Shown here in pieces: positions 12,767-56,867 of a DNA stretch of 64,000 bases. A program made the translations under genes and the position numbers. Below the pieces are notes generated by a model. That model had not been told where the DNA came from, did no database searches, and saw only the letters and a program-made list of their open reading frames with translations. This stretch comes from Candidatus Gastranaerophilaceae bacterium (GTDB lineage Bacteria; Cyanobacteriota; Vampirovibrionia; Gastranaerophilales; Gastranaerophilaceae), in assembly GCA_045538535.1 (NCBI GenBank), contig JAZSRN010000053.1, positions 15,315 to 79,314 on the forward strand. The letters are read 5' to 3'. Positions within the stretch are counted from its first letter, which is position 1; the number at the start of each line of letters is the position of its first letter.

Positions 12767-13417
12767 CTAAAATCCAAATGGATAATCGTCCGGAACCTTC
12801 CAACCGTTCGCTTGAATTAAAGCCGCACAACCATGGCGAAACTCAACATCTTGACGACATCCATGATCCGCTTTTTTTATTTTATCTGCACCTAACCCCT
12901 CATAATAAGTCGCAAATTTATATCTATTACCATGAGCAACCATTCTAAAAGTAAAACGTTCAGTTCCATCCTTTGCCATTGCATAATGCTTATTTTCGTT
13001 TAGCAATAGATGGGATTTTGGATAGTAATAAAAATGAATAGAATCTACACCTGTGAAATGATTAAACATTACAAACCCTGAACCATCTGACAAACGAACA
13101 ACTATTCTCTTATTATCAGAGCTAACATATGCATCTTGAACATTAAGTTTGCTTTTTAGATATTTGTTAAACCACTCTAGACACTCCGAACCATTAGCAT
13201 TAGATGAAAAAGTATCCCAATTTTGTACCGGTTCACCATGCTCGTATTCAGCAGCAATTACAGCTTGACTCATTGTTGAGTAGAATTTTTTCAGCTTAGA
13301 TTCTACAACCATTTTTCTATGATTACTCATTACCGTTGGAAGAGTTAACGCTGCAACAACCCCAACAATCCCCAATGTTATCAAAACCTCTGCTAATGTA
13401 AAAGCTAATTTTCGCAT
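12767..13417 (-). CDS. Prepilin-type N-terminal cleavage/methylation domain protein (type IV pilin / pseudopilin-like)
   Basis: MRKLA|FTLAEVLITLGIVGVVAALTLP class III signal. C-terminal C-x9-C-x6-NGWK motif. I prefer the ATG at 13417 (RBS AAGAGGA) over the TTG at 13432. Confidence 0.8.
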   Translation of the reverse strand: MRKLAFTLAEVLITLGIVGVVAALTLPTVMSNHRKMVVESKLKKFYSTMSQAVIAAEYEHGEPVQNWDTFSSNANGSECLEWFNKYLKSKLNVQDAYVSSDNKRIVVRLSDGSGFVMFNHFTGVDSIHFYYYPKSHLLLNENKHYAMAKDGTERFTFRMVAHGNRYKFATYYEGLGADKIKKADHGCRQDVEFRHGCAALIQANGWKVPDDYPFGF

Positions 13418-13550
13418 ATAATCCTCTTTCAAAAACTACAACATAGTAATAAAATTTCTTGTTTACAATACTTATTATAATTGATTTATATACGGTTTAC
13501 AACTATCGGATAGTTTAAAATTTACAAATATATACATTACAATTAACTGC

Positions 13551-13778
13551 ATGGGAAGAAAAGTATTCAAATACGACAAAATTTTATGTAGGAAGTTTGG
13601 CAAAAAAATTGCAAACTACCGTATTGAAGCTGATATTACCCAAGAAGAATTAGCATTCAGAGCAAATATTTCCCCAAGCTACATGAGCGCCATAGAACGA
13701 GGGATTACGGATACAACGATATCAACCGCAAAACGCTTGGCCAAAGCATTGCAAGTAAATATCACAGAATTATTCTAA
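13551..13778 (+). CDS. XRE-family HTH transcriptional regulator
   Basis: ITQEELAFRANISPSYMSAIERG HTH_3 pattern in 75 aa. Divergent from the pilin-like gene. Confidence 0.85.
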   Translation: MGRKVFKYDKILCRKFGKKIANYRIEADITQEELAFRANISPSYMSAIERGITDTTISTAKRLAKALQVNITELF

Positions 13779-14554: not shown

Positions 14555-14619
14555 AAGAAGTGAGCCGAAATAAAGTTAGAAGAAACAAGTTTTGGTAAAC
14601 GAACCAGAAAAGAACTCGT

Positions 14620-14692
14620 GGGGGTTTAGCTCAGCTGGTAGAGCACCTGCTTTGCACGCAGGGGGTCAGGAGTTCGAATCTCCTAACCTCCA
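14620..14692 (+). tRNA. tRNA-Ala (anticodon UGC), CCA not encoded
   Basis: Cloverleaf folded by hand. Acceptor GGGGGTT/AACCTCC carries the G3:U70 alanine identity pair. D arm GCTC..GAGC, anticodon loop TTTGCAC, T arm AGGAG-TTCGAAT-CTCCT. Confidence 0.93.
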
Positions 14693-14699
14693 AAATTTA

Positions 14700-14728
14700 A
14701 AAAGACCTGTATCAAACAGGTCTTTTTT
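14700..14728 (+). terminator. Rho-independent terminator after the tRNA
   Basis: AAAAGACCTGT-atcaa-ACAGGTCTTTTTT. Confidence 0.85.
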
Positions 14729-14839
14729 ATTGTCCCACAAGGGTTTTCAGAGTTCAATGGCTCCAAAATTGATATATCTTTTTTATATACAATAAAATTA
14801 GCCTAAAAGCTAGGTGTAGCAATACTTATAGGAGGTTTT

Positions 14840-15037
14840 ATGAGAGAGGACAGGTTTAGGAGAGTCGAACACCAATGGGAAATTAACATGATTAAAGGTA
14901 AAAATTTTTCTGAAGAAGATAAAATAAAAATAGGAAAAAGTTTTTTAGAAATGATGAACCATTTTTATTCTGATCCAAAAAATGAAAAAGAATTTTGGGA
15001 ATGGTATGAGAAAAAACATGGACCTATGCAACTCTAA
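14840..15037 (+). CDS. Small hypothetical protein (65 aa, W/E/K-rich)
   Basis: Strong RBS TAGGAGG 5 nt upstream of the ATG, and a terminator downstream. Confidence 0.45.
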   Translation: MREDRFRRVEHQWEINMIKGKNFSEEDKIKIGKSFLEMMNHFYSDPKNEKEFWEWYEKKHGPMQL

Positions 15038-15128
15038 ATGAGTAAATAAAAATCTTGTTTTTTATGTCAAAGTCAATAACGGAGCCTTTTTCAAGAGTTC
15101 GGATGTTGTTACGTAAACTCCAAAATAG

Positions 15129-15160
15129 AAAACCGAATGACATCTGTTATTCGGTTTTTT
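15129..15160 (+). terminator. Rho-independent terminator
   Basis: AAAACCGAAT-loop-ATTCGGTTTTTT. Confidence 0.7.
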
Positions 15161-15161
15161 A

Positions 15162-15398
15162 TTTTTCGTCATTGCGAGAGCGAAAGCCCGAAGCAATCTA
15201 GCCTTTGTCGATTTTAATTGGTCGGAAGTTTGCATTTTCAAACTAGACGAAAACGGTCTTTTCTTGCACTTTTTTGCACACTTTTGCATTAACCTTGCAC
15301 AAAATTGCACCAATTTTGCATACTTTTGCATTCTCTAGTAGGGTTGACTTCAACCAAACACTATTCTTTTTCGGTAGACTGAAGTCTACCCTACTTGC
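15162..15398. repeat. Composite ~235-bp repeat, copy A (GC-rich hairpin + GGTCGGAAGT..GACGAAAACGGTCTTTT core + phased TTGCA array + terminal stem-loop)
   Basis: Aligns end to end with 16424-16655 in direct orientation. Ends in a 16-bp imperfect inverted repeat, AGTAGGGTTGACTTCA (15337-15352) and TGAAGTCTACCCTACT (15380-15395). Confidence 0.85.
15264..15331. repeat. Array of seven TTGCA(C/T) motifs phased at 10-11 bp, copy A
   Basis: Motif starts at 15264, 15274, 15284, 15295, 15305, 15316 and 15326. T/A tracts between motifs share the same phase. Confidence 0.85.
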
Positions 15399-15440
15399 TA
15401 CTGGCTGATAAAGTGGTCATTTTTTTTAGCATTTTGAATT

Positions 15441-16280
15441 TTAGTGGTGACAGCCGTAGCCGAATCTACTGGTATCATACCCTAAGGCTGTTAAGTATGG
15501 GTAATTAAAGTTGTTACCAGGAGATTCAAAAATGCGCTTTACTTCAAGCAGTTTATTATTCTTTTCTGCTAAGGCAAGTATTACTTTACGCATGTGCTTT
15601 TTTACTTCTGGTGAAATTGAGTTAAATTCTTCAATTGTTGTAGTCAAGTCAATTAATCTCTGTACAAGAGAATATCTACTTTGTTTCCAGTATTTTGGTT
15701 TAATATCTAACATTTTTATAACGTATTCTATGTTATTTTCATCGATTTTTAAAATGGCATCTAATAGTTTTTCTGGTTCATATTCCATTTTTACATTAAC
15801 CCCCCAATATATTCCTGGGACTATAGTCGATTTTGTCTCTTTAGCATAGTGATTAATATCATTGGCAATTTTTCTTGCTTCATTACGAACATCTTTTATT
15901 GTGTTTTGTGAGGTTTTATTTGCTCTTTGTCCTTGATAAGATGAAATACTCTGAGAATTTGACTGAATATTTTGTGTTTCCTGAAAAATTGATTTAAATT
16001 CATCTATATTAAGTAGTTGATCATTGGTTTTATCATATAAGGACATTTGAAAATTATCGATACCTAATTCATTAATCTCTTTTTGAGAGATATACATATC
16101 TTTAGGCGCATTATCAAGCATGTTAAACGTCTTATAAATTATGTTATTAGCGGTTTCTGTTCTGTTATTTTGTGCAGTACCAGCCATAGGTGATGCCAAC
16201 GCTGTTGTTAATACCATACATTGTAATGCCTTTTTAGGCGTTGTAAATGAGGTATTTGATTGAGTGGGAGTAATCGTCAT
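15441..16280 (-). CDS. Hypothetical protein (279 aa) with one EF-hand-like loop
   Basis: RBS AAGGAA. DKTNDQLLNIDEF resembles a Ca-binding loop. Otherwise unrecognised. Confidence 0.45.
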   Translation of the reverse strand: MTITPTQSNTSFTTPKKALQCMVLTTALASPMAGTAQNNRTETANNIIYKTFNMLDNAPKDMYISQKEINELGIDNFQMSLYDKTNDQLLNIDEFKSIFQETQNIQSNSQSISSYQGQRANKTSQNTIKDVRNEARKIANDINHYAKETKSTIVPGIYWGVNVKMEYEPEKLLDAILKIDENNIEYVIKMLDIKPKYWKQSRYSLVQRLIDLTTTIEEFNSISPEVKKHMRKVILALAEKNNKLLEVKRIFESPGNNFNYPYLTALGYDTSRFGYGCHH

Positions 16281-16423
16281 ATAAATTCCTTTCTTATCTT
16301 TAATACTTTGATTGCAACAAAATTAAAACCTGTAAAAAAAAAATTTGCTATTAATTCAAGAATGAGCTTGTAGAAAAATTTTCCTAAATAGTTCAAATTG
16401 ATTGTCAAAACATATAGAAAGTA

Positions 16424-16655
16424 TTTTTCGTCATTGCGAGGGCAAAAGCCCGAAGCAATCTAGTTCTTACCAACTTTAAACGGCCGGAAATTTACCAATC
16501 CAAACTGGACGAAAACGGTCTTTTCTTGCACTTTTTTTCACTTTTTTTCACACTTTTGCACTAACCTTGCACAAAATTGCACTGTTTTTGCACTTAAAAA
16601 ATTGTTGGGTTTTACCCAACCTACCCACTATTTTTTCGGTAGACTGAAGTTTCCC
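16424..16655. repeat. Composite ~235-bp repeat, copy B
   Basis: Direct repeat of 15162-15398. Its right end supplies the last codons and stop of ORF 16628-17071 and a hairpin, GTTGGGT-ttt-ACCCAAC. Confidence 0.85.
16526..16593. repeat. Array of seven TTGCAC/TTTCAC motifs phased at 10-11 bp, copy B
   Basis: Motif starts at 16526, 16536, 16546, 16556, 16567, 16577 and 16588. Confidence 0.85.
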
Positions 16656-17071
16656 ATACATGCTTTTATAGATTCAAAGAATTCTTCATCAGACATCGGC
16701 TTAAATCTAGACTTAATAACTCCAGTACTTTCATTCAATGTAATTGATTTATTAGGAACAAAACCATTCATTAATACAATTTCAGATTTTGCTTTAATAG
16801 GTTGTTCAAATTTAGGGAGGGCTTCAGCTATTGTAGATAATCCACCATATTTAAAAGGATTGGTAAACATATTCAAGAAACAAGTTTTTTTACCTTTATA
16901 TTTTGCACCCATTGAAAGCATTACACTATCTTGTGTTAAAGCTGTATTTGGTAAAGTTTTATTTACTAATGTTGTAGCTTGTAGCAATTCCCTTATTCCA
17001 TTTTTTGTTGGGGTATTGGTTACTAAATTACGGCATTGAACTTTTGACACACAATCTACAAAATTTACCAT
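16628..17071 (-). CDS. Hypothetical protein (147 aa)
   Basis: Strong RBS AAGGAG 7 nt upstream of the ATG. Preferred over the overlapping plus-strand ORF 16602-17039, which starts inside the repeat. Confidence 0.5.
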   Translation of the reverse strand: MVNFVDCVSKVQCRNLVTNTPTKNGIRELLQATTLVNKTLPNTALTQDSVMLSMGAKYKGKKTCFLNMFTNPFKYGGLSTIAEALPKFEQPIKAKSEIVLMNGFVPNKSITLNESTGVIKSRFKPMSDEEFFESIKACMGNFSLPKK

Positions 17072-17217
17072 TTTAAAACTCCTTTATAATTATTTAACTA
17101 CACCTAAAAACATTAACGTCAATGAATATTTAAAATTGACTAAATATTACAAAATCCTTTCTATATACTTTTTTATATTTATCATAAACCTTCTAAAAAT
17201 ATTTTTTGCTAGTTAAC

Positions 17218-17276
17218 ATAAAAATTATCAAACCAACTGTTCTTTTTTCTCAAACCTAGTGTCAAAATACAATTGT
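17218..17276 (-). promoter_or_regulatory. Shared promoter box U, copy 1 (gene strand TTGACA..TTGAGA-N18-GATAAT)
   Basis: About 47 of 58 positions are identical to 18372-18429 by hand alignment. GATAAT lies at 17224-17229 on the minus strand. Confidence 0.5.
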
Positions 17277-17280
17277 CCAG

Positions 17281-17530
17281 TTTGGTCGGAAGTAAAAAGT
17301 AAAACTGTCATGCTGAACTTGTTTCAGCATCTTGCCACTTAGGCGTGTTCACTACATTCTGGTGAGACCCTGAAATGAATTCAGACTGACAAAATGGTCG
17401 GAAGTCTATAAATCCAAGCTGGACCAAAACGGACTTTTGATGGACTTTGTTTTTCCATTTTTATACACCCTCACCCGAGCTTTGGGCACCCTCTCCTACA
17501 AGGGGCGAGGGTAATAAAAGTCCTATTTGA
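17281..17530. repeat. Mosaic of GC-rich hairpin modules, block C
   Basis: GGTCGGAAGT occurs at 17284 and 17396. The core CTGGACCAAAACGGACTTTT (17419-17438) is shared with blocks A and B. Hairpins are ATGCTGAA/TTCAGCAT (17310-17330) and ACCCTC/GAGGGT (17488-17512). Confidence 0.75.
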
Positions 17531-17559
17531 GAATTTTGAAGGAGTAAATAAAGTCGGGT

Positions 17560-18312
17560 TTAACCTTTTCTTATTTTTTCCATTTTTTCAATCAAGGTTC
17601 TTTCAATAATTTCATACTTTTCTTCAAAAGCACATTTTTTATTAATATTCACTTTAGAACCATATTTCATAGATTCATTGAACGCTAATGCTTCGTTAAT
17701 AATGGCATATCTAAAAAACTGCAAGGCATTTACTTGTTTTTCTTCCGGCATTGTTGCTAAAAACTTATTCAAACGATTTTCAAACCTTTTTTGCCAATTA
17801 AAAAGTTTATCTAATATTGAAATGCTACTATAAATATTTTTTTCAAAAAAGTTCGCAATAGGCTTATTAATAGAATTTACTCTTGCATTTATTTTTGGAT
17901 TTAAAAGACTTACAAATAAATGAAAAGTTTCATGCATAAGGAATTCACTATCGTATTTCTTAATTTTGTATTTATGATAACTTGTTGCACCGTCTTTGCT
18001 AGCTTTTACACCAAGATATAAATTATTTTTAAATCTATGAAAATAACCAAGTGTTTGTGAAGTCCACATATTAACAGGACGAACATCTAATTTAAAATTT
18101 TTTGGTATAAAGTTTTTTGAAAGAACGTATTTCATTTCCTCTATTGTCATAAACCCTTTTTTCATTTTTTCATTTGCTAATTGATAAAATTCAGCATTAA
18201 GTTCTTGGGCTTTTACAAGTCCAGATGTAACAGGGCCTTTAGGACCTACTATATTACGAACAATTTGAGATTTATTGGGGATAGTTTTTATCATGCTAAA
18301 CCTAAAACTCAT
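17560..18312 (-). CDS. Hypothetical protein (250 aa) with HExxH motif
   Basis: FLMHETFHLFV is a zincin-like HExxH. No signal peptide. The start codon is uncertain because no clear RBS is present. Confidence 0.45.
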   Translation of the reverse strand: MSFRFSMIKTIPNKSQIVRNIVGPKGPVTSGLVKAQELNAEFYQLANEKMKKGFMTIEEMKYVLSKNFIPKNFKLDVRPVNMWTSQTLGYFHRFKNNLYLGVKASKDGATSYHKYKIKKYDSEFLMHETFHLFVSLLNPKINARVNSINKPIANFFEKNIYSSISILDKLFNWQKRFENRLNKFLATMPEEKQVNALQFFRYAIINEALAFNESMKYGSKVNINKKCAFEEKYEIIERTLIEKMEKIRKG

Positions 18313-18371
18313 AAATTTTAAATTTTGACTAAATATTTACGATATTAAGTTTGTAAGTTGATTGAAACGCA

Positions 18372-18429
18372 ACAAAAATTATCAAGCTCACTGTTCTTTC
18401 TTCTCGAATCAAGTGTCAAAACACAGTGT
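18372..18429 (-). promoter_or_regulatory. Shared promoter box U, copy 2
   Basis: Aligned to 17218-17276. GATAAT lies at 18378-18383 on the minus strand. Confidence 0.5.
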
Positions 18430-18522
18430 ATCAGAAATTTTGACATAAAGTATCGCAAGTTTGACATATTAATCGGAAGTTTGTCGAATGTATTTTATAA
18501 TCCGGTATTTTAAAATCCTTAA

Positions 18523-18867
18523 ATGCAAAGAATTGTACGAAATACCTTGTTAAATTACATACCTAACAATTTCACTATAGAAAAAGAGATTAACACAGCA
18601 AGAGTTTATGAGCTTAATAATAAACCTATCAAAAATCACGATATAATTTACTTATGCGAAAGAGAAATTAGAGCAAAGGACAATTTTGCCCTACAATTTG
18701 CGATAGAAAAAAGCAAGGAGTCTGTAGGTTGGGTGAAACCCAACAAAATTTATCTACAAGTTGTCCAAAGAGATTATTTCGTTTTTTCTTCTAATTTATT
18801 TTTCATTTTTGCCGCCAAAGGAGTTGATACGGCAGGAGCTATTACTCGTTTTGCAATTATTGATTGA
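18523..18867 (+). pseudogene. Truncated duplicate of the photolyase 5' end (66 codons), then read-through into unrelated sequence
   Basis: 18511-18720 matches 20661-20870 with 7 mismatches. Homology stops abruptly at 18720. The remaining frame is antisense to ORF 18774-19430. Confidence 0.8.
18724..18746. repeat. Hairpin element GTAGGTTGGGTGAAACCCAACAA, an inverted copy of 16602-16624
   Basis: Its reverse complement matches 16602-16624 at 22 of 23 positions. It starts 3 nt after the photolyase-duplication breakpoint. Confidence 0.8.
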
Positions 18868-19430
18868 AGTACAATTGCTGTAAATGTACTAAGGCCATTT
18901 ATTACCATATTATAACGAGGCGTTTTTTCTAGAGGTTTTAATATTTTTTCAAATCCTTTTGTAATCTTATTCACAGACATAGGGCCTAATATAAAAGATA
19001 AAACTACCGTTGTTAGACATGCCATAACATCATATGAGCCCATAAATAATCGCTTTTCACGTGAATAATCAGGATTAGTAAAGGATTGAGATGTACTTAC
19101 AATCCCCGTCATTAAATCTTTCAATATATTACCAATAAGCACTGCATTAATTATCGTTTTTCCTAAATCGTTTGTTTTATGACCACCGACTTTGTTAAAT
19201 AATTTTGCAAATTTTTCAAAAATTTTTGTTATAATTTCATCTGTTTTTTTATGGAATTTGCTTGTTGATAGTTTTTTATCAAGCTCATTTTGAGCAAGCG
19301 TACATGTTTGTGCCGCTAATTCTTTTATTTGTTTGTAGTCTTCTAGAGAAGGTGTTTTACCTAAGCGATTTATCATTCTATTGACATTTTTTAATGATTC
19401 ATAAGAATTTATTGGAGGTATTTTATTCAT
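18774..19430 (-). CDS. Hypothetical membrane protein (218 aa)
   Basis: RBS GGAGGG. Hydrophobic segments in the C-terminal half. Overlaps the upstream ORF by 8 nt. Confidence 0.5.
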   Translation of the reverse strand: MNKIPPINSYESLKNVNRMINRLGKTPSLEDYKQIKELAAQTCTLAQNELDKKLSTSKFHKKTDEIITKIFEKFAKLFNKVGGHKTNDLGKTIINAVLIGNILKDLMTGIVSTSQSFTNPDYSREKRLFMGSYDVMACLTTVVLSFILGPMSVNKITKGFEKILKPLEKTPRYNMVINGLSTFTAIVLQSIIAKRVIAPAVSTPLAAKMKNKLEEKTK

Positions 19431-20526
19431 TTTTACCCTCCGTATTTTTGTTTAAATTTAACAATTTTACAGCTTTACCATGAATTACATTCAGAAATAT
19501 TCTGCTAAGAATAACTACCGTAACAATATTCATTGCTATTTTAGGTTTTATTTTCGCAAGTTCATAGTTCCCTACAGCATCTGCAATAATCTTAAATTTT
19601 TTTCTAACATAGTCTATATTTTCCGGTTTTATAATTCCTTGCTTAATTTGTCTTTCAAAATTCCGAACATAGCTTTCATAGGTTTCAGGTTCAAAAGCAT
19701 CGATAGTTATTAATTTGCGAGCATCATTTTCTGAAAGTATATCTTTTAACCCGCCTTTTTCTTGTGCCATATTCGTTAATTCGATAAATAATCGCTTCGC
19801 TTCATTAGGGTTATATTTAATATTTTCAAATTGATTTACCAAAATCTTTCCATGCTCTTTAATTTGCTCTCTAATTTCTTTTGTTTCAAATATATTATTT
19901 GAAAGAATCTTCGGCATATATACATTAAAAAGCTTATCAAAAGCTCCTTGTAAAGTAAAAGTAGCAAGAACCGACAACGGTTCTCTTATTATTACGTATG
20001 CTTTTTCATCCTTAGAGGATTCTTTTTTCCCTATAATGCTTGTTAATATTACAAGAGGCATAATAAAAAGTTTTCCGACAGAATTGATAAGGTTATTATA
20101 AAGTTCATCTCCCATTTTGGCTTTTGAATTTTGAAAACTCTGTCCAAGATTATATAACGTTTTGGTAAAAAATTTCTTAATTTTTCCTTGAGATTCAAGG
20201 AGTTTATCTATATTAGTTTCATCTTTAATCTTTTGGATATTTTCCAACTTTGAATACTGTTTTTCAATCCGTTTTGCTTTATTATAAATATATTCAGGAC
20301 TATGTGTTCTTAATATTCCAGTTTTATACGCAGCAAAACCAACGGCTGTCAACCATAACGATGTAGCCGTCACATCCGCAATTTTTTTTACATTATTATG
20401 TCCAGATTTTTGGTATTTGATTTCGTTTTTAGGTTCAATAAACCAATCGCGATGTTCAATATGTTTAACTAAACTTATATCATACATATACATAACAACG
20501 TTCATAAAAATAAATTTTGCTACCAA
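19423..20526 (-). CDS. Hypothetical membrane protein (up to 367 aa, start uncertain)
   Basis: Long K/I/N-rich ORF with TM segments near both ends. The TTG start at 20526 sits 2 nt from a TATATA box, so a downstream ATG (for example 20505) is more likely. Confidence 0.45.
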   Translation of the reverse strand: MVAKFIFMNVVMYMYDISLVKHIEHRDWFIEPKNEIKYQKSGHNNVKKIADVTATSLWLTAVGFAAYKTGILRTHSPEYIYNKAKRIEKQYSKLENIQKIKDETNIDKLLESQGKIKKFFTKTLYNLGQSFQNSKAKMGDELYNNLINSVGKLFIMPLVILTSIIGKKESSKDEKAYVIIREPLSVLATFTLQGAFDKLFNVYMPKILSNNIFETKEIREQIKEHGKILVNQFENIKYNPNEAKRLFIELTNMAQEKGGLKDILSENDARKLITIDAFEPETYESYVRNFERQIKQGIIKPENIDYVRKKFKIIADAVGNYELAKIKPKIAMNIVTVVILSRIFLNVIHGKAVKLLNLNKNTEGKNE

Positions 20527-20672
20527 CTATATAAAGTTAAACAAATTTATACGAGCATTTTTGCAACCGACACACTACAATACAGATAAAAAACTCAACA
20601 ATCTAACACTTTGACCTAAACATTAGATATTTAGTGAATATGTTTTTTTATTCTGCATTTTATAATCCTTAA

Positions 20673-21950
20673 ATGCAAAGAATTGTACGAAACACCTTAT
20701 TAAATTACATACCTAACAATTTCACTATAGAAAAAGAGATTAACACAGCAAGAGTTTATGAGTTTAACAATAAACCTATCAAAAATCACGATATAATTTA
20801 CTTATGCGAAAGAGAAATTAGAGCAAAGGACAATTTCGCACTACAATTTGCGATAGAAAAAAGCAAGGAGTTAGACTTGCCATTAAAAATAATTCATCCA
20901 AAGATTAATTATGAACACGCATCAAAACAAAGATTTATTGACAATCAAATAGAACAAGCAAAAACTCAATTTTGGGATATAGGTTTAGATTTTGAAATAA
21001 TCAAAAATACATCGCTTGAAATAATAAAAAATACAAATCCGGCTATTTTAATTGTTGATTTTAATCCGATTTTAAAAAGAGATTACTTAAAAAACACTAA
21101 TTGCAAGATTTATGAGATTGATGGCCATAATATAATTCCTACAAGATTTGTTTCAGACAAACAAGAATATAGCGCAGCGACTCTAAGAACAAAAATTTAT
21201 CATAAAATATATCCATTCTTAACCGAGTTTGACAATTTAATAACAGAAAAAGTAGAAGCAGATTGTGTTTTAGAAACTTTCATTAAAAACAAATTACCGT
21301 ATTATGCAGAATATAAAAATGACCCGTCAAAAAATGTTATATCAAGTTTATCAAAATATTTAAATCTAGGTTTTATTTCAAGTCAAAGAGTTGCACTTGA
21401 AGTTATAAAATCCGGAGCAAATAATATAAATAAAGAAACATTTTTAGAAGAATTAATTATTAGAAAAGAATTGGCAGATAATTTTTGCCTATATTCAAAA
21501 AGTTTTAAAGATTTTTCTTCAATTCCAAACTGGGCAAAAATCTCTCTTAATAATCACCGATTAGATATTCGCCCGTACCTATATTTACTCCAAGATTTAG
21601 AAAAGGCAAAAACACATGACCAATTATGGAATGCTGCGCAAATCCAATTGATAAAAGAAGGAACAATTCACGGATATTTAAGAATGTACTGGGCAAAGAA
21701 AATCTTGGAATGGAGCAGTTCACCAGAAGACGCTCTAAAAATAGCGATTTACTTAAATGATAAATATGCTTATGATGCACCATCTGCGAATGGTTATGTC
21801 GGAGTTTTATGGGCAATTGGAGGTTTACACGATAGAGCATTTGCGGATTATCCAATAACTGGCAAAATACGCCGAATGAGTTATAACTCTACAAAAAGAA
21901 AATATGATTTGTCCACTTATATAAACCACAACAATCGCAATTTATTTTAA
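20673..21950 (+). CDS. phr: Deoxyribodipyrimidine photolyase, class II-like
   Basis: C-terminal FAD-binding pattern IHGYLRMYWAKKILEW ... NGYVGVLWAIGGLHDRAF in a 425-aa protein. Confidence 0.8.
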   Translation: MQRIVRNTLLNYIPNNFTIEKEINTARVYEFNNKPIKNHDIIYLCEREIRAKDNFALQFAIEKSKELDLPLKIIHPKINYEHASKQRFIDNQIEQAKTQFWDIGLDFEIIKNTSLEIIKNTNPAILIVDFNPILKRDYLKNTNCKIYEIDGHNIIPTRFVSDKQEYSAATLRTKIYHKIYPFLTEFDNLITEKVEADCVLETFIKNKLPYYAEYKNDPSKNVISSLSKYLNLGFISSQRVALEVIKSGANNINKETFLEELIIRKELADNFCLYSKSFKDFSSIPNWAKISLNNHRLDIRPYLYLLQDLEKAKTHDQLWNAAQIQLIKEGTIHGYLRMYWAKKILEWSSSPEDALKIAIYLNDKYAYDAPSANGYVGVLWAIGGLHDRAFADYPITGKIRRMSYNSTKRKYDLSTYINHNNRNLF

Positions 21951-23625: not shown

Positions 23626-24993
23626 TTATACGTTATTACTGTACTTACTTAGAACTTCACACATACATTCGTGCGCAATTTTAACCACATAATCCATATC
23701 TTTACGTTCAAAAATCAATGGAGGATTAAAATAAATAACGTCACCAAGCGGCCTTAACAAAACGCCTTTAGTCAAGGCTAATTTATAAATTTGATAACCA
23801 ATGCGCAATTTTGAAGGAAAAGATTTTTTACTTTCTTTATCTTCAATAATTTCAATTGCATTTATCAATCCGATATTACGAACTTCTCCCACATTAGAAT
23901 TGTTTGCAAAAGTTTTTCTTATCAAATCATTAAAATAAATCGCATTTTCATTTGCTTGTTTTAGGATTTTACCATCTTCCATCATTTTAAGGACTTCAAC
24001 TGCTGCCGACGCTGCAAGAGGATTTCCGGCGTATGTATGACTATGCATAAATGCTTTACCTTTAACATAATCCGCATAAAAAGCGTCGTAAATTTTTTGC
24101 GTAGTAATCGTTATCGCCATTGGCATATAACCACCGGTCAACCCTTTTGATACACACATAATATTAGGGGAAACACCGGCATGGTCAAATGCAAACATTT
24201 TCCCTGTTCTGCCAAATCCCGTCGCAATTTCATCAGCAATTAAATGGACGTCGTATTTGTCGCAAAGCTGTCTCAATTTTGTTAAATACAAAGGCGGATA
24301 GACTTTCATACCTGCTGAACCTTGTAATAACGGTTCCACAAGGATTGCACAACAATCTTTTCCAAATTCCGCAAATACTTTTTCAGCATTTTCGAAACAT
24401 TCACATTTACAATCACATCGATCTTTATTGTATGGACATCTATAACAATCAGGCGCCGGCACCTTGACTGTATTGAGCAGAATGGGTTTATAAATCTCTG
24501 AATACAAATCAACCGCACCAACCGACAATGCTCCGATAGTTTCACCATGATAAGCATCCGTCAACGCCATGAATTTTGTTTTTTGTGTGTTACCAGTTTG
24601 TTGGTGATATTGGAAACTCATTTTCATAGCCATTTCAACCGATGAAGAACCATTGTCGGCAAAATTAAATTTACACAACCCTTTCGGAACAATTTTAGAT
24701 AATCTTTCACAAAGTTCTATCACCTTTTTATGTGTAAAATTTGCAAAAATAACATGTTCTAATTTGTCAATTTGTTCTTTTACAGCCTTATTTATTTGAG
24801 GATTACAATGCCCCAAAAGATTACACCACCAAGAACTGATGACATCTATATAACGATTACCATCAATATCGTACAAATAAACCCCTTCACCTCGCTCAAT
24901 AACAATCGGTGGCAAGGTCTCATAATCTTTCATTTGTGAGCACGGATGCCAAATATATTCTAAATCTTTTTCGACCCAATTCATATTTTCCAT
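23626..24993 (-). CDS. bioA: Adenosylmethionine-8-amino-7-oxononanoate aminotransferase
   Basis: Class III aminotransferase pattern (IADEIATGFGRTGKMFA, SHTYAGNPLA). Directly abuts bioD. Confidence 0.88.
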   Translation of the reverse strand: MENMNWVEKDLEYIWHPCSQMKDYETLPPIVIERGEGVYLYDIDGNRYIDVISSWWCNLLGHCNPQINKAVKEQIDKLEHVIFANFTHKKVIELCERLSKIVPKGLCKFNFADNGSSSVEMAMKMSFQYHQQTGNTQKTKFMALTDAYHGETIGALSVGAVDLYSEIYKPILLNTVKVPAPDCYRCPYNKDRCDCKCECFENAEKVFAEFGKDCCAILVEPLLQGSAGMKVYPPLYLTKLRQLCDKYDVHLIADEIATGFGRTGKMFAFDHAGVSPNIMCVSKGLTGGYMPMAITITTQKIYDAFYADYVKGKAFMHSHTYAGNPLAASAAVEVLKMMEDGKILKQANENAIYFNDLIRKTFANNSNVGEVRNIGLINAIEIIEDKESKKSFPSKLRIGYQIYKLALTKGVLLRPLGDVIYFNPPLIFERKDMDYVVKIAHECMCEVLSKYSNNV

Positions 24994-53774: not shown

Positions 53775-54470
53775 TTAATAATCCATCTTCCATCCATTTT
53801 GAGCAAGGTAATTATAACAACCTTGACCTTCTAATTGCCCTTCTTTGCAATCTTCAGGATTACCAGAATCAACTAATATGCCATCATTTCTTAAATCAAA
53901 TAGAAACACATCATACCCATATTTATTTGGCGCCTTAAAACCATTTACATCCATTTCAATAACCCCTAAAGAATTTCCAACGCCATTACCTATCATCATA
54001 CTCATCATAGCATTATCATTTAACACAAGCATAGTTGCCCCACGCATATTATTAGTGCCAGTATTTGATAAATTAGTAAATTTATAGTCGTTAGGTGCAA
54101 TTGCATAATCTATAATATTAAAATATTTTTTCAAATCATTTTTAAAGAAATTTTGACACAATTGACTAGCTTGTTCTAAATTGGAATTTGAACAGTCAAC
54201 ACTATCCGTAGAAAGTTGAACAAATGGTTCCGTATCTTCCAAGCTATCAACACCTCCAGCATCTGCACGCATTTTTTGGAATCCTTGTTCAAGAGTTGAT
54301 ACTGTTTTTCTTAATTGAGCAACCCAAACTTGCTTTTTGTGACTAGCAATCAAATTTGGCATTGTTAATGCTGCAACAATACCAATAATACCTAACGTAA
54401 TTAACACTTCTGCTAACGTAAACCCAAGCCGAATATTAACATTAGTACTCTTTTTGCAAAATAATTCCAT
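53775..54470 (-). CDS. Prepilin-type N-terminal cleavage/methylation domain protein
   Basis: RLG|FTLAEVLITLGIIGIVAALTMP. C-terminal C-x9-C-x6-NGWK motif. RBS AAAGGAA. Confidence 0.8.
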   Translation of the reverse strand: MELFCKKSTNVNIRLGFTLAEVLITLGIIGIVAALTMPNLIASHKKQVWVAQLRKTVSTLEQGFQKMRADAGGVDSLEDTEPFVQLSTDSVDCSNSNLEQASQLCQNFFKNDLKKYFNIIDYAIAPNDYKFTNLSNTGTNNMRGATMLVLNDNAMMSMMIGNGVGNSLGVIEMDVNGFKAPNKYGYDVFLFDLRNDGILVDSGNPEDCKEGQLEGQGCYNYLAQNGWKMDY

Positions 54471-56195: not shown

Positions 56196-56867
56196 ATGAG
56201 AAAGATATTTTCTAACAAAACACAACGCCAAGCGTTCACACTTGCAGAAGTTTTAATAACATTGGGTATTATCGGCATTGTGTCTGCAATTACAATGCCA
56301 ACATTGATTAGCAACCATAAACAACAGACTTATATGACAACCTTGCATAAAGTCTACAACGAAACACATCAAGCATTAACCCAATTAAAAACTGACAAAA
56401 ACGTGGAAACTTTGACTGAAGCTGGCTTAAATTCTAATGCAGCATTAGCTGACTGGGCAAAAAAATATTTCAAAGTTCAAACTGATTGCGGTACAAGTGC
56501 TACACCGTGTTTTGCTCCTTCATACAAGCATTTAAAAGGTGCAACCGTCAGCGACATATCATTTACAAGCGGTGCTAGTTGTTTCCAACTTCCAAGCGGT
56601 GCATCCATAAGACCATATTACAAGAGTGAATACGAAAAGAAAATTAATCTTTTTGTCGACACAAACGGTGCAAAAGGCCCAAATATTTTGGGTAGAGATG
56701 CATATTTATTAGGAATATACAATAACGGAACAATTGATGACTATGATGGAGGTTCTGTACCATTGACTCCGGCAAGACGAACTGCGCTATATAACAATAA
56801 ATGCAATTCCACTACTGGCAGTGTTTGGGGTTGTTTTGGCAACGTATTAAACAACGGCTGGAAATAG
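56196..56867 (+). CDS. Prepilin-type N-terminal cleavage/methylation domain protein
   Basis: RQA|FTLAEVLITLGIIGIVSAITMP. The C-terminus is C-x9-C-x6-NGWK. Confidence 0.8.
   Translation: MRKIFSNKTQRQAFTLAEVLITLGIIGIVSAITMPTLISNHKQQTYMTTLHKVYNETHQALTQLKTDKNVETLTEAGLNSNAALADWAKKYFKVQTDCGTSATPCFAPSYKHLKGATVSDISFTSGASCFQLPSGASIRPYYKSEYEKKINLFVDTNGAKGPNILGRDAYLLGIYNNGTIDDYDGGSVPLTPARRTALYNNKCNSTTGSVWGCFGNVLNNGWK

Follow-up and report, generated by a model that had tools for sequence, protein, structure and literature searches.

A probable gene-insertion hotspot without mobile-element genes between tRNA-Ala and a photolyase gene in a Gastranaerophilales-like genome

We analyzed a 64,000-nt stretch of contig JAZSRN010000053.1 (hereafter the window) from a Gastranaerophilales-like genome and, within it, the block of DNA that separates a tRNA-Ala gene from the photolyase gene phr. 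Comparison with related contigs supports the conclusion that this interval is a strain-variable, recombination-shaped locus with lineage-specific genes. The explanation that we favor, with a probability of roughly 0.6, is a gene-insertion hotspot that lacks mobile-element genes and was made by homologous and illegitimate recombination. We infer an ancestral order of tRNA-Ala(-65-aa gene), terminator, phr promoter and phr. Three minus-strand transcription units (A, B and C) would have been added between a conserved tRNA-containing anchor unit and the phr promoter, and an E-D operon would have entered at phr codon 66 together with a fresh phr 5' end, the truncated copy phr' being the scar of this event. 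All five open reading frames (ORFs) of the block lie on the minus strand, as an earlier note on this DNA had reported, and were matched in the ORF list. The anchor unit and the ORFs (lengths in amino acids, aa) are as follows.

14610-15133, plus strand: conserved anchor unit of ~520 bp, made up of tRNA-Ala(TGC), a terminator hairpin, a 65-aa gene and ~95 nt of conserved 3' sequence
14619-14693, plus strand: tRNA-Ala(TGC)
14699-14727: terminator hairpin behind tRNA-Ala, within the anchor unit
14840-15037, plus strand: 65-aa gene with a strong AGGAGG ribosome-binding site
15122-15165: bidirectional terminator-like hairpin at the left edge of the variable DNA, -22.5 kcal/mol, z-score -8.4
15441-16280, minus strand: ORF A, 279 aa, an orphan with host-like codon usage and a third-position GC content (GC3) of 0.25
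16628-17071, minus strand: ORF B, 147 aa, from a small family
17560-18312, minus strand: ORF C, 250 aa, likely true start at ATG 18294
18774-19430, minus strand: ORF D, 218 aa, with two or three hydrophobic segments
19423-20526, minus strand: ORF E, 360 aa from ATG 20505, all-helical with two transmembrane-like hydrophobic segments, overlapping D by 8 nt

The evidence for insertion comes from contigs in which parts of this arrangement are missing or replaced. In L002, whose phr is 75% identical to that of the window, tRNA-Ala(TGC) and a terminator are followed by phr ~170 nt further on, and both the tRNA and the phr upstream regions are homologous to those of the window. The L002 intergenic DNA aligned with window positions 18426-18522, and did so better than with the DNA upstream of intact phr; this tRNA-Ala/phr adjacency was seen in one genome only. 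The 65-aa gene and terminator of L096 are followed by a phr-type promoter box, and in L091 the module known from downstream of C in the window comes directly after the 65-aa gene (87.6% identity over 218 nt), without A, B or C. Contig L088, from an independent run, was 98.5% identical to the window over 2355 nt and confirmed the D-E-phr order. It lacks window positions 18418-18718 (the phr promoter and phr'), carries an inverted copy of an 85-nt palindrome in their place, and rejoins the window at 18417. L099, another assembly, was 98.4% identical over 17516-18425 only, which spans C with its downstream and promoter modules; past 18425 it holds three genes that are absent from the window, encoding a large membrane protein and ORFs of 293 and 196 aa. 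Thus, even contigs that are 98.4-98.5% identical to the window diverge from it at 18417-18425 and at 18719, and because the breakpoints fall at 18417 in L088 and at 18425 in L099, both lie at the right end of the promoter module of C (18417-18425). Furthermore, the DNA 3' of the tRNA-Ala/65-aa-gene unit differed in all eight distinct contigs that reach past this unit. These comparisons support the proposal of a recombination-driven variable locus made in the earlier note.

The tRNA-Ala and the 65-aa gene form one conserved unit, so that variable DNA starts at ~15134 and not directly behind the tRNA, as had been claimed; the first 440 bp belong to the conserved unit. An identical 65-aa protein is present on 22 contigs, of which we looked at ten (L089-L098). 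The anchor unit was 97-98% identical to that of the window in eight of these ten, and 94.8% and 91.4% identical in L096 and L097, respectively, and its flanks differed on both sides, with at least seven different right flanks. Homology between the window and all other anchor contigs stops at 15125-15133, where each contig has its own hairpin. Between L091 and L092 the anchor unit was 98.0% identical, versus 72.0% for 2.4 kb of syntenic flanking genes, a difference between species that is expected if recombination repeatedly runs through the anchor unit. Selection of contigs for an identical protein biases this comparison for the coding DNA, whereas the ~240 nt of non-coding DNA are unaffected; with the contigs preselected in this way, the result is suggestive of raised homologous recombination at the anchor unit. 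In L096 the 65-aa gene is present without the tRNA, and many assemblies end inside the anchor unit, with L093, L094 and L110 breaking within tRNA-Ala itself. The product of the 65-aa gene had no family or structure match, and a protein scan and an exact 33-mer search of the JGI metagenome set returned nothing for this gene.

The same site receives other DNA in relatives. In L090 (1-20198), a full tRNA-Ala is followed by an element of ~9.7 kb with a tyrosine integrase, HTH_17 (excisionase-like), VapE-like, PrimPol and Fic genes, and at its border a 47-nt direct repeat copies the tRNA 3' end (from tRNA position 14647) and abuts the 65-aa gene. Behind the 65-aa gene, both L090 and L093 have a type I restriction-modification system, together with an AAA_15/21 ATPase.

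On the phr side, the interval carries a partial duplication of the photolyase gene.

18426-18721, plus strand: phr promoter region and phr', with an ancestral-type promoter at 18426-18522 and a truncated phr' of 66 codons from ATG 18523
18507-18721, plus strand: direct-repeat copy R1, 16 nt of leader and 66 phr codons, 215 bp
20657-20871, plus strand: direct-repeat copy R2, leader and first 66 codons of intact phr (20673-21950)
18719-18751: hairpin GTTGGGTGAAACCCAAC, an inverted copy of 16597-16629, with the R1 joint at its left edge

The duplicated phr 5' end that the earlier note had taken for the right border of the block is real, since R1 and R2 are 96.7% identical, but it is internal: the copies lie 2150 bp apart with D and E between them. 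The region upstream of phr' is nearer to the phr upstream DNA of L002 and L001 than is the region upstream of functional phr. The R1 joint is the only readable joint in the block. It reads AAGGAGT joined to CTGTAGG in the window and GGTAGGAAGT joined to CTGTAGG at the same place in L088; because L088 shows a core-like motif where the window has phr codons 64-66, the joint lies in a GGA(A)GT microhomology. The phr' region has a promoter-like region and a 114-codon open frame (18523-18867, plus strand) that crosses the hairpin and enters the 3' end of D in antisense orientation, and this frame could yield an antisense transcript. A TATAAT/TAAAAT box ~7 nt upstream of the phr ATG, without a ribosome-binding site (20655-20675 and 18499-18525), is kept in L001-L006, and since this near-ATG arrangement is conserved in relatives, phr may be translated from a leaderless mRNA. 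The closest photolyases are from uncultured rumen and gut Gastranaerophilales/Melainabacteria genomes (top match RUG13389, 77% amino-acid identity), whereas an exact look-up of phr returned no entry. Finding a class II photolyase in bacteria of the gut and rumen is curious in its own right.

The spacers of the block measure 403, 347, 488 and 461 bp, compared to a median gap of 78 bp in the window, and they are assembled from reused modules that, within the 64 kb, are confined to this block. The length of the spacers and their construction from hairpins, phased arrays and a promoter box had both been pointed out in the earlier note and hold.

15158-15400, plus strand: X module copy 1, ~245 bp, 81-89% identity between copies; hairpin at 15168-15199, GGTCGGAAGT core at 15220, AAACTAGACGAAAACGGTC at 15240 and nested hairpins at 15337-15395
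16420-16664, plus strand: X module copy 2, laid out as copy 1 with another hairpin, GTTGGGT-loop-ACCCAAC at 16597-16629, which is the terminator of B
17122-17271, minus strand: promoter-side module upstream of B, with 27-nt and 52-nt elements and TTGAGA-18-GATAAT
17273-17559, plus strand: downstream module of C, with GGTCGGAAGT at 17284 and 17396, a palindrome between them, X core at 17392-17451 and a hairpin at 17467-17512
17306-17391: palindromic element of 85 nt resembling a miniature inverted-repeat transposable element (MITE), GTCATGCTGAAC..., -31.6 kcal/mol
18311-18425, minus strand: promoter-side module upstream of C, a paralogue of 17122-17271

Each X copy contains a GC-rich hairpin (GTCATTGCGAG...GAAGCAATC), a core of the form GGTCGGAAGT-N13-AAACTGGACGAAAACGGTC, seven TTGCA(C) boxes and more hairpins. 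X copy 2 overlaps the 3' end of B and encodes its final 12 codons, and the ~55-nt X core, which recurs at 17392-17451, was conserved in five copies over three genomes. The upstream regions of B and C have in common the 52-nt and 27-nt elements with the promoter-like TTGAGA-18-GATAAT on the minus strand, and the upstream region of A shares with them a TTTTGACA box only. A further motif, TCGGAAGT, occurs eight times in the 64 kb, four of these on the plus strand in spacers S0, S2 (twice) and S3, with a variant, CCGGAAAT, in S1. The same motif or a close variant marks the R1 joint in both the window and L088, as well as the point at which the L091 homology begins on the left. The phr upstream region of L002 contains TCGGAAGT, and the motif TCGGAAGTTTG is present there as well. 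TCGGAAGT could recur because the duplicated DNA has a common ancestry, because it is an operator or because it is a recombination site.

Several observations concern the modules themselves. The TTGCA(C) arrays (15264-15330 and 16526-16592) have a period of 10-11 bp, which is one helical turn, and lie within T-tracts; the DNA may be intrinsically curved there, or the boxes may bind a protein. No TTGCA-like array was found in the rest of the window or in ~1.7 Mb of related loci. The 85-nt palindrome occurs elsewhere in either orientation (L088 2365-2437, L091 from 10369, L100 2933-2960, L035 from 5053), and a 41-nt stretch of it is found at 92.7% identity in an Ignavibacteriales contig (L027, 6018-6058), a match that suggests a repeat of the MITE or repetitive extragenic palindromic (REP) kind that crosses phyla. 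The GC-rich hairpins of the block fold well according to a folding-energy check. A structured RNA in the X core was considered and rejected: an Rfam scan matched the tRNA as its sole hit, and RNAalifold gave ~-4 kcal/mol on both strands with zero covariation and no conserved fold. An 89-aa ORF at 15062-15331 (minus strand) is probably not a gene; it results from translating the X module, and the second X copy has not kept it.

Units A, B and C share one layout, in which an X-type module lies downstream of an unrelated ORF and a promoter module with TTTTGACA lies upstream of it, and they are arranged in tandem in a common non-coding frame. Each insert, and the D-E pair as well, is bracketed by direct repeats of local sequence.

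Around A: two X copies of ~245 bp, spacing 1262 bp
Around B: X core copies of ~60 bp, spacing 914 bp
Around C: copies of the 52-nt promoter element, spacing 1154 bp
Around D-E: the 215-bp phr repeat, spacing 2150 bp

This is the pattern that single-crossover integration yields. In the mechanism that we propose, host homologous recombination would act on short common sequences (the anchor unit, phr and the reused spacer modules), supplemented by microhomology-mediated illegitimate joining. A single crossover with a circularised fragment that bears local homology (Campbell-type integration) would leave direct repeats around the insert, and the same repeats would permit RecA-dependent loss of each unit, so that a dedicated recombinase would not be needed. 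The window itself encodes RecR and AddAB-like nuclease/helicase genes, which we count in support of this explanation.

Signatures of mobile elements were looked for throughout the 64 kb. A domain scan of 58 distinct ORFs of at least 120 aa (the listed ORF 23626-24993 was left out) found no integrase or transposase domain, including no Phage_integrase, and no recombinase of the IntI/attI integron type. A 29-nt pattern for the tRNA 3' end occurred once only in the window with up to three mismatches allowed. These results agree with the earlier note, which had seen no integrase, transposase or tRNA-derived repeat. No attC-like site was recognized, as the spacer hairpins differ and the one element that all spacers have in common, a short core, is not an inverted repeat and has no conserved fold, a dedicated attC model not having been run. 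The only long inverted pair consists of the two copies of the 33-nt hairpin. The units are co-oriented like cassettes, yet B and C share a promoter-like module and A has a TTTTGACA box, all of these promoters being predicted. A phage or plasmid origin was rejected, as relatives were found in none of the viral contigs, phages and plasmids of IMG/VR, INPHARED and PLSDB. A literature search on one hairpin sequence and on Gastranaerophilales genomic islands retrieved nothing relevant.

Several points weigh against a hotspot built by recombination. No recombination event was seen directly, so the steps are read from end products, and the direction of gain or loss comes from few, mostly short contigs. 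The closest contigs cover the block in part, and no independent contig confirms the junctions that link the 65-aa gene with A, B and C. Apart from the phr repeat, the direct repeats have diverged to 75-89% identity and could equally be old local regulatory duplications. Synteny around phr was absent in 13 of 14 relatives, the exception being the tRNA in L002; low synteny is thus general in this clade, and the differing contexts of C and E-D (50-85% identity) do not prove mobility. For this reason, real weight can be given to the comparisons of near-identical contigs only. Finally, plain homologous recombination does not explain why TCGGAAGT is found in four spacer positions, with CCGGAAAT in a fifth, and at one joint.

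One alternative is that A-E are vertically inherited, lineage-specific resident genes, with the modules serving as shared regulatory sites (TCGGAAGT, TTTTGACA and the curved TTGCA arrays) and terminators in a clade whose gene order is scrambled. The families of E-D and C show conservation of the purifying type (39 and 8 clusters, respectively) and invariant motifs, codon usage is host-like, phr and its neighbors also lack synteny in relatives, and TCGGAAGTTTG precedes phr in L002 as well. We nevertheless consider this explanation unlikely, because structural differences with sharp breakpoints at module edges are present even between the window and contigs of 98.4-98.5% identity, and because a truncated phr copy and a 215-bp direct repeat are scars of recombination and not regulatory features. 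The lack of a gene downstream of X copy 1, whichever strand is considered, counts against resident genes too, as does the lack of any homologue of A.

Two further explanations appear less probable still. In one, which we regard as a long shot, the ~55-nt X core (GGTCGGAAGT-N13-AAACTGGACGAAAACGGTC) would be an attachment site at which a recombinase encoded elsewhere inserts promoter-bearing units behind the tRNA-Ala/65-aa-gene platform, in a cassette system that would be specific to this lineage, integron-like in function and unrelated to integrons. The distribution of TCGGAAGT in the spacers, its presence or that of a close variant at the R1 joint and where the L091 homology starts on its left side, and the conservation of the core are all in its favor. 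However, the 58 scanned ORFs contained no recombinase, the breakpoints at 15133 and 18417-18425 lack the motif, the core has no attC-like conserved fold and is missing beside the homologues of C and E-D in other species, and, with copies that are 75-89% identical, the events would not be recent; the sample, moreover, is five copies. The other, which we hold to be the least likely of all, is that strain variants were wrongly joined into a chimeric block during metagenome assembly of the contig, the repeats marking the mis-joins. It is true that the source is an 84,898-nt contig of an uncultured genome, that A was found on this contig alone and that contigs from other samples (L093, L094 and L110) break inside tRNA-Ala. 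The D-E-phr order, however, is seen again in an independent assembly (L088), as are, in others, C between its two flanking modules (L099) and the DNA to the left as far as the tRNA (L109-L111), the 65-aa gene is joined to the terminator in ten contigs, and repeat copies that have diverged by 3-25% are too different for collapse or mis-joining.

The hotspot explanation has a precedent. In hotspots without mobile elements, turnover was shown to proceed by homologous recombination, which is raised at the conserved flanks (Oliveira, Touchon et al. 2017, PMC5635113). Like these hotspots of horizontal gene transfer, the interval described here is short, lies between conserved genes and beside a tRNA, has strain- or species-specific content free of integrases and transposases, and has an unusually conserved flank, consistent with recombination at the border. 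It differs from them in that its inserts are tandem units with a common non-coding frame and in that the flanking gene phr carries a duplication scar. The earlier note had expected a mechanism other than that of a classical island or integron. The window has no recombinase, which agrees with this expectation, but novelty of the mechanism is not supported, as the features fit the class just cited (PMC5635113) and the joint is an ordinary microhomology joint. The locus would therefore be one further example of a kind already described, and a new cassette mechanism is not supported.

Other known systems resemble the block in part. With integron cassette arrays it shares co-oriented, unrelated small ORFs, repeated hairpin-containing spacers and the lack of a recombinase in the array; it differs from them in having no IntI/attI in 64 kb, spacers that are mosaics of 350-490 bp in place of a single attC of 57-141 bp, units with their own promoter-like modules, and no hairpin common to all spacers. 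Integrative islands that target tRNAs (tyrosine-integrase islands and satellites) likewise occupy the 3' side of a tRNA, and L090 has such an element in the same tRNA-Ala, but the window has neither an integrase nor a tRNA-derived repeat, and its variable DNA begins only after the 65-aa gene. The tRNA-linked 'tycheposons' of marine cyanobacteria are tRNA-targeting integrative elements. Campbell-type integration and homology-facilitated illegitimate recombination (e.g. PMC3240628) would account for inserts flanked by local direct repeats, for one joint in 4-5 nt of microhomology and for a D-E insert anchored on one side in homologous phr; these processes are known mainly from laboratory transformation and conjugation, whereas here they are read from end products. 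Finally, the 85-nt palindrome resembles REP/MITE-like elements, as it occurs in both orientations and in several genomes and replaces the phr' segment in L088; unlike them, it has no cognate transposase that we could identify, and its target-site duplication is ambiguous (GGTCGGAAGT on both sides at unequal distances).

None of the five block proteins had a significant match in Pfam, NCBIfam, PHROGs or PADLOC, which agrees with the earlier note's failure to recognize a family, and a sequence-profile search of the PDB returned nothing. The suggestion that they are effector, surface-protein or defence cargo found no backing in PADLOC or fold matches, and a toxin role is likewise without evidence; the best PADLOC score for A-E (E = 0.006, to a Cas13b-associated membrane-protein model) was not significant. 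Paralogy among the five was rejected, as all pairwise BLASTP comparisons gave E >= 0.1. Codon usage of the block is host-like with a slightly lower GC3. ORF A had no homologue but itself among 5.8 billion protein clusters. ORF B had 13 relatives among 1.84 billion representative proteins (P0075-P0087); this family has a strongly conserved N-terminal region of ~65 aa (MVNFADCVSKVQCRNLVTNTPTK...) followed by unrelated C-termini, with total lengths of 45-203 aa. A shared N-terminal signal of B and C (RN(L/I)V...T..G) was rejected (hhalign probability 0.1), and a 145-aa ORF antisense over B (16602-17039, plus strand) is probably not a gene.

ORF C is the sole ORF of the five in which a motif was found. 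Its family comprises eight homologue clusters in whose alignment HExxH (HETFH) is invariant, and its AlphaFold2 model (pLDDT 74, pTM 0.72) has a mixed alpha/beta N-terminal half that holds the HExxH helix. C is probably a metal-dependent hydrolase, a reasonable guess that takes its cue from the invariant motif. ORF E has 39 homologue clusters and an AlphaFold2 pLDDT of 65, and a Foldseek comparison of the C and E models with the PDB gave zero matches below E = 0.4. D and E, which are probably membrane-associated, form an 8-nt-overlapping pair in every contig looked at, D always being paired with E. The E-D pair was found in four other, mutually unrelated neighborhoods (E being 65-83% identical), and C in three further gene neighborhoods of related genomes. 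In these other species the coding regions alone are common, and the modules are not. On these comparisons, C and E-D appear to be conserved lineage-wide families and not obviously mobile cassettes.

Outside the block, the window is low-GC DNA (~32%) with tightly packed genes and ordinary gene content, including two-component systems, biotin genes, an Omp85-family protein and TPR proteins. No GC-skew inflection was found, and a replication origin was rejected on this ground. Prepilin-type genes (N_methyl/DUF6613) are scattered through the window (12767-13432, 53775-54470 and 56196-56867) and the related loci L081 and L084, where they often adjoin helix-turn-helix genes of the XRE type; an XRE-type regulator is also encoded next to the block, at 13551-13778.

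Altogether, the locus shows where and how strain-specific genes gather in the poorly studied, non-photosynthetic gut and rumen relatives of cyanobacteria. The same tRNA-Ala hotspot takes integrase islands and restriction systems in relatives, and in the window it has probably kept readable scars of recombinase-free insertion, namely a photolyase copy that has been cut short and direct repeats on both sides of each unit. The analysis also flags three protein families of no known function or fold (C with its HExxH motif, the E-D membrane pair and the B family) and a 520-bp tRNA-linked unit that is conserved far beyond its surroundings. Current concepts would change only if the repeated core turned out to be a site of recombination.

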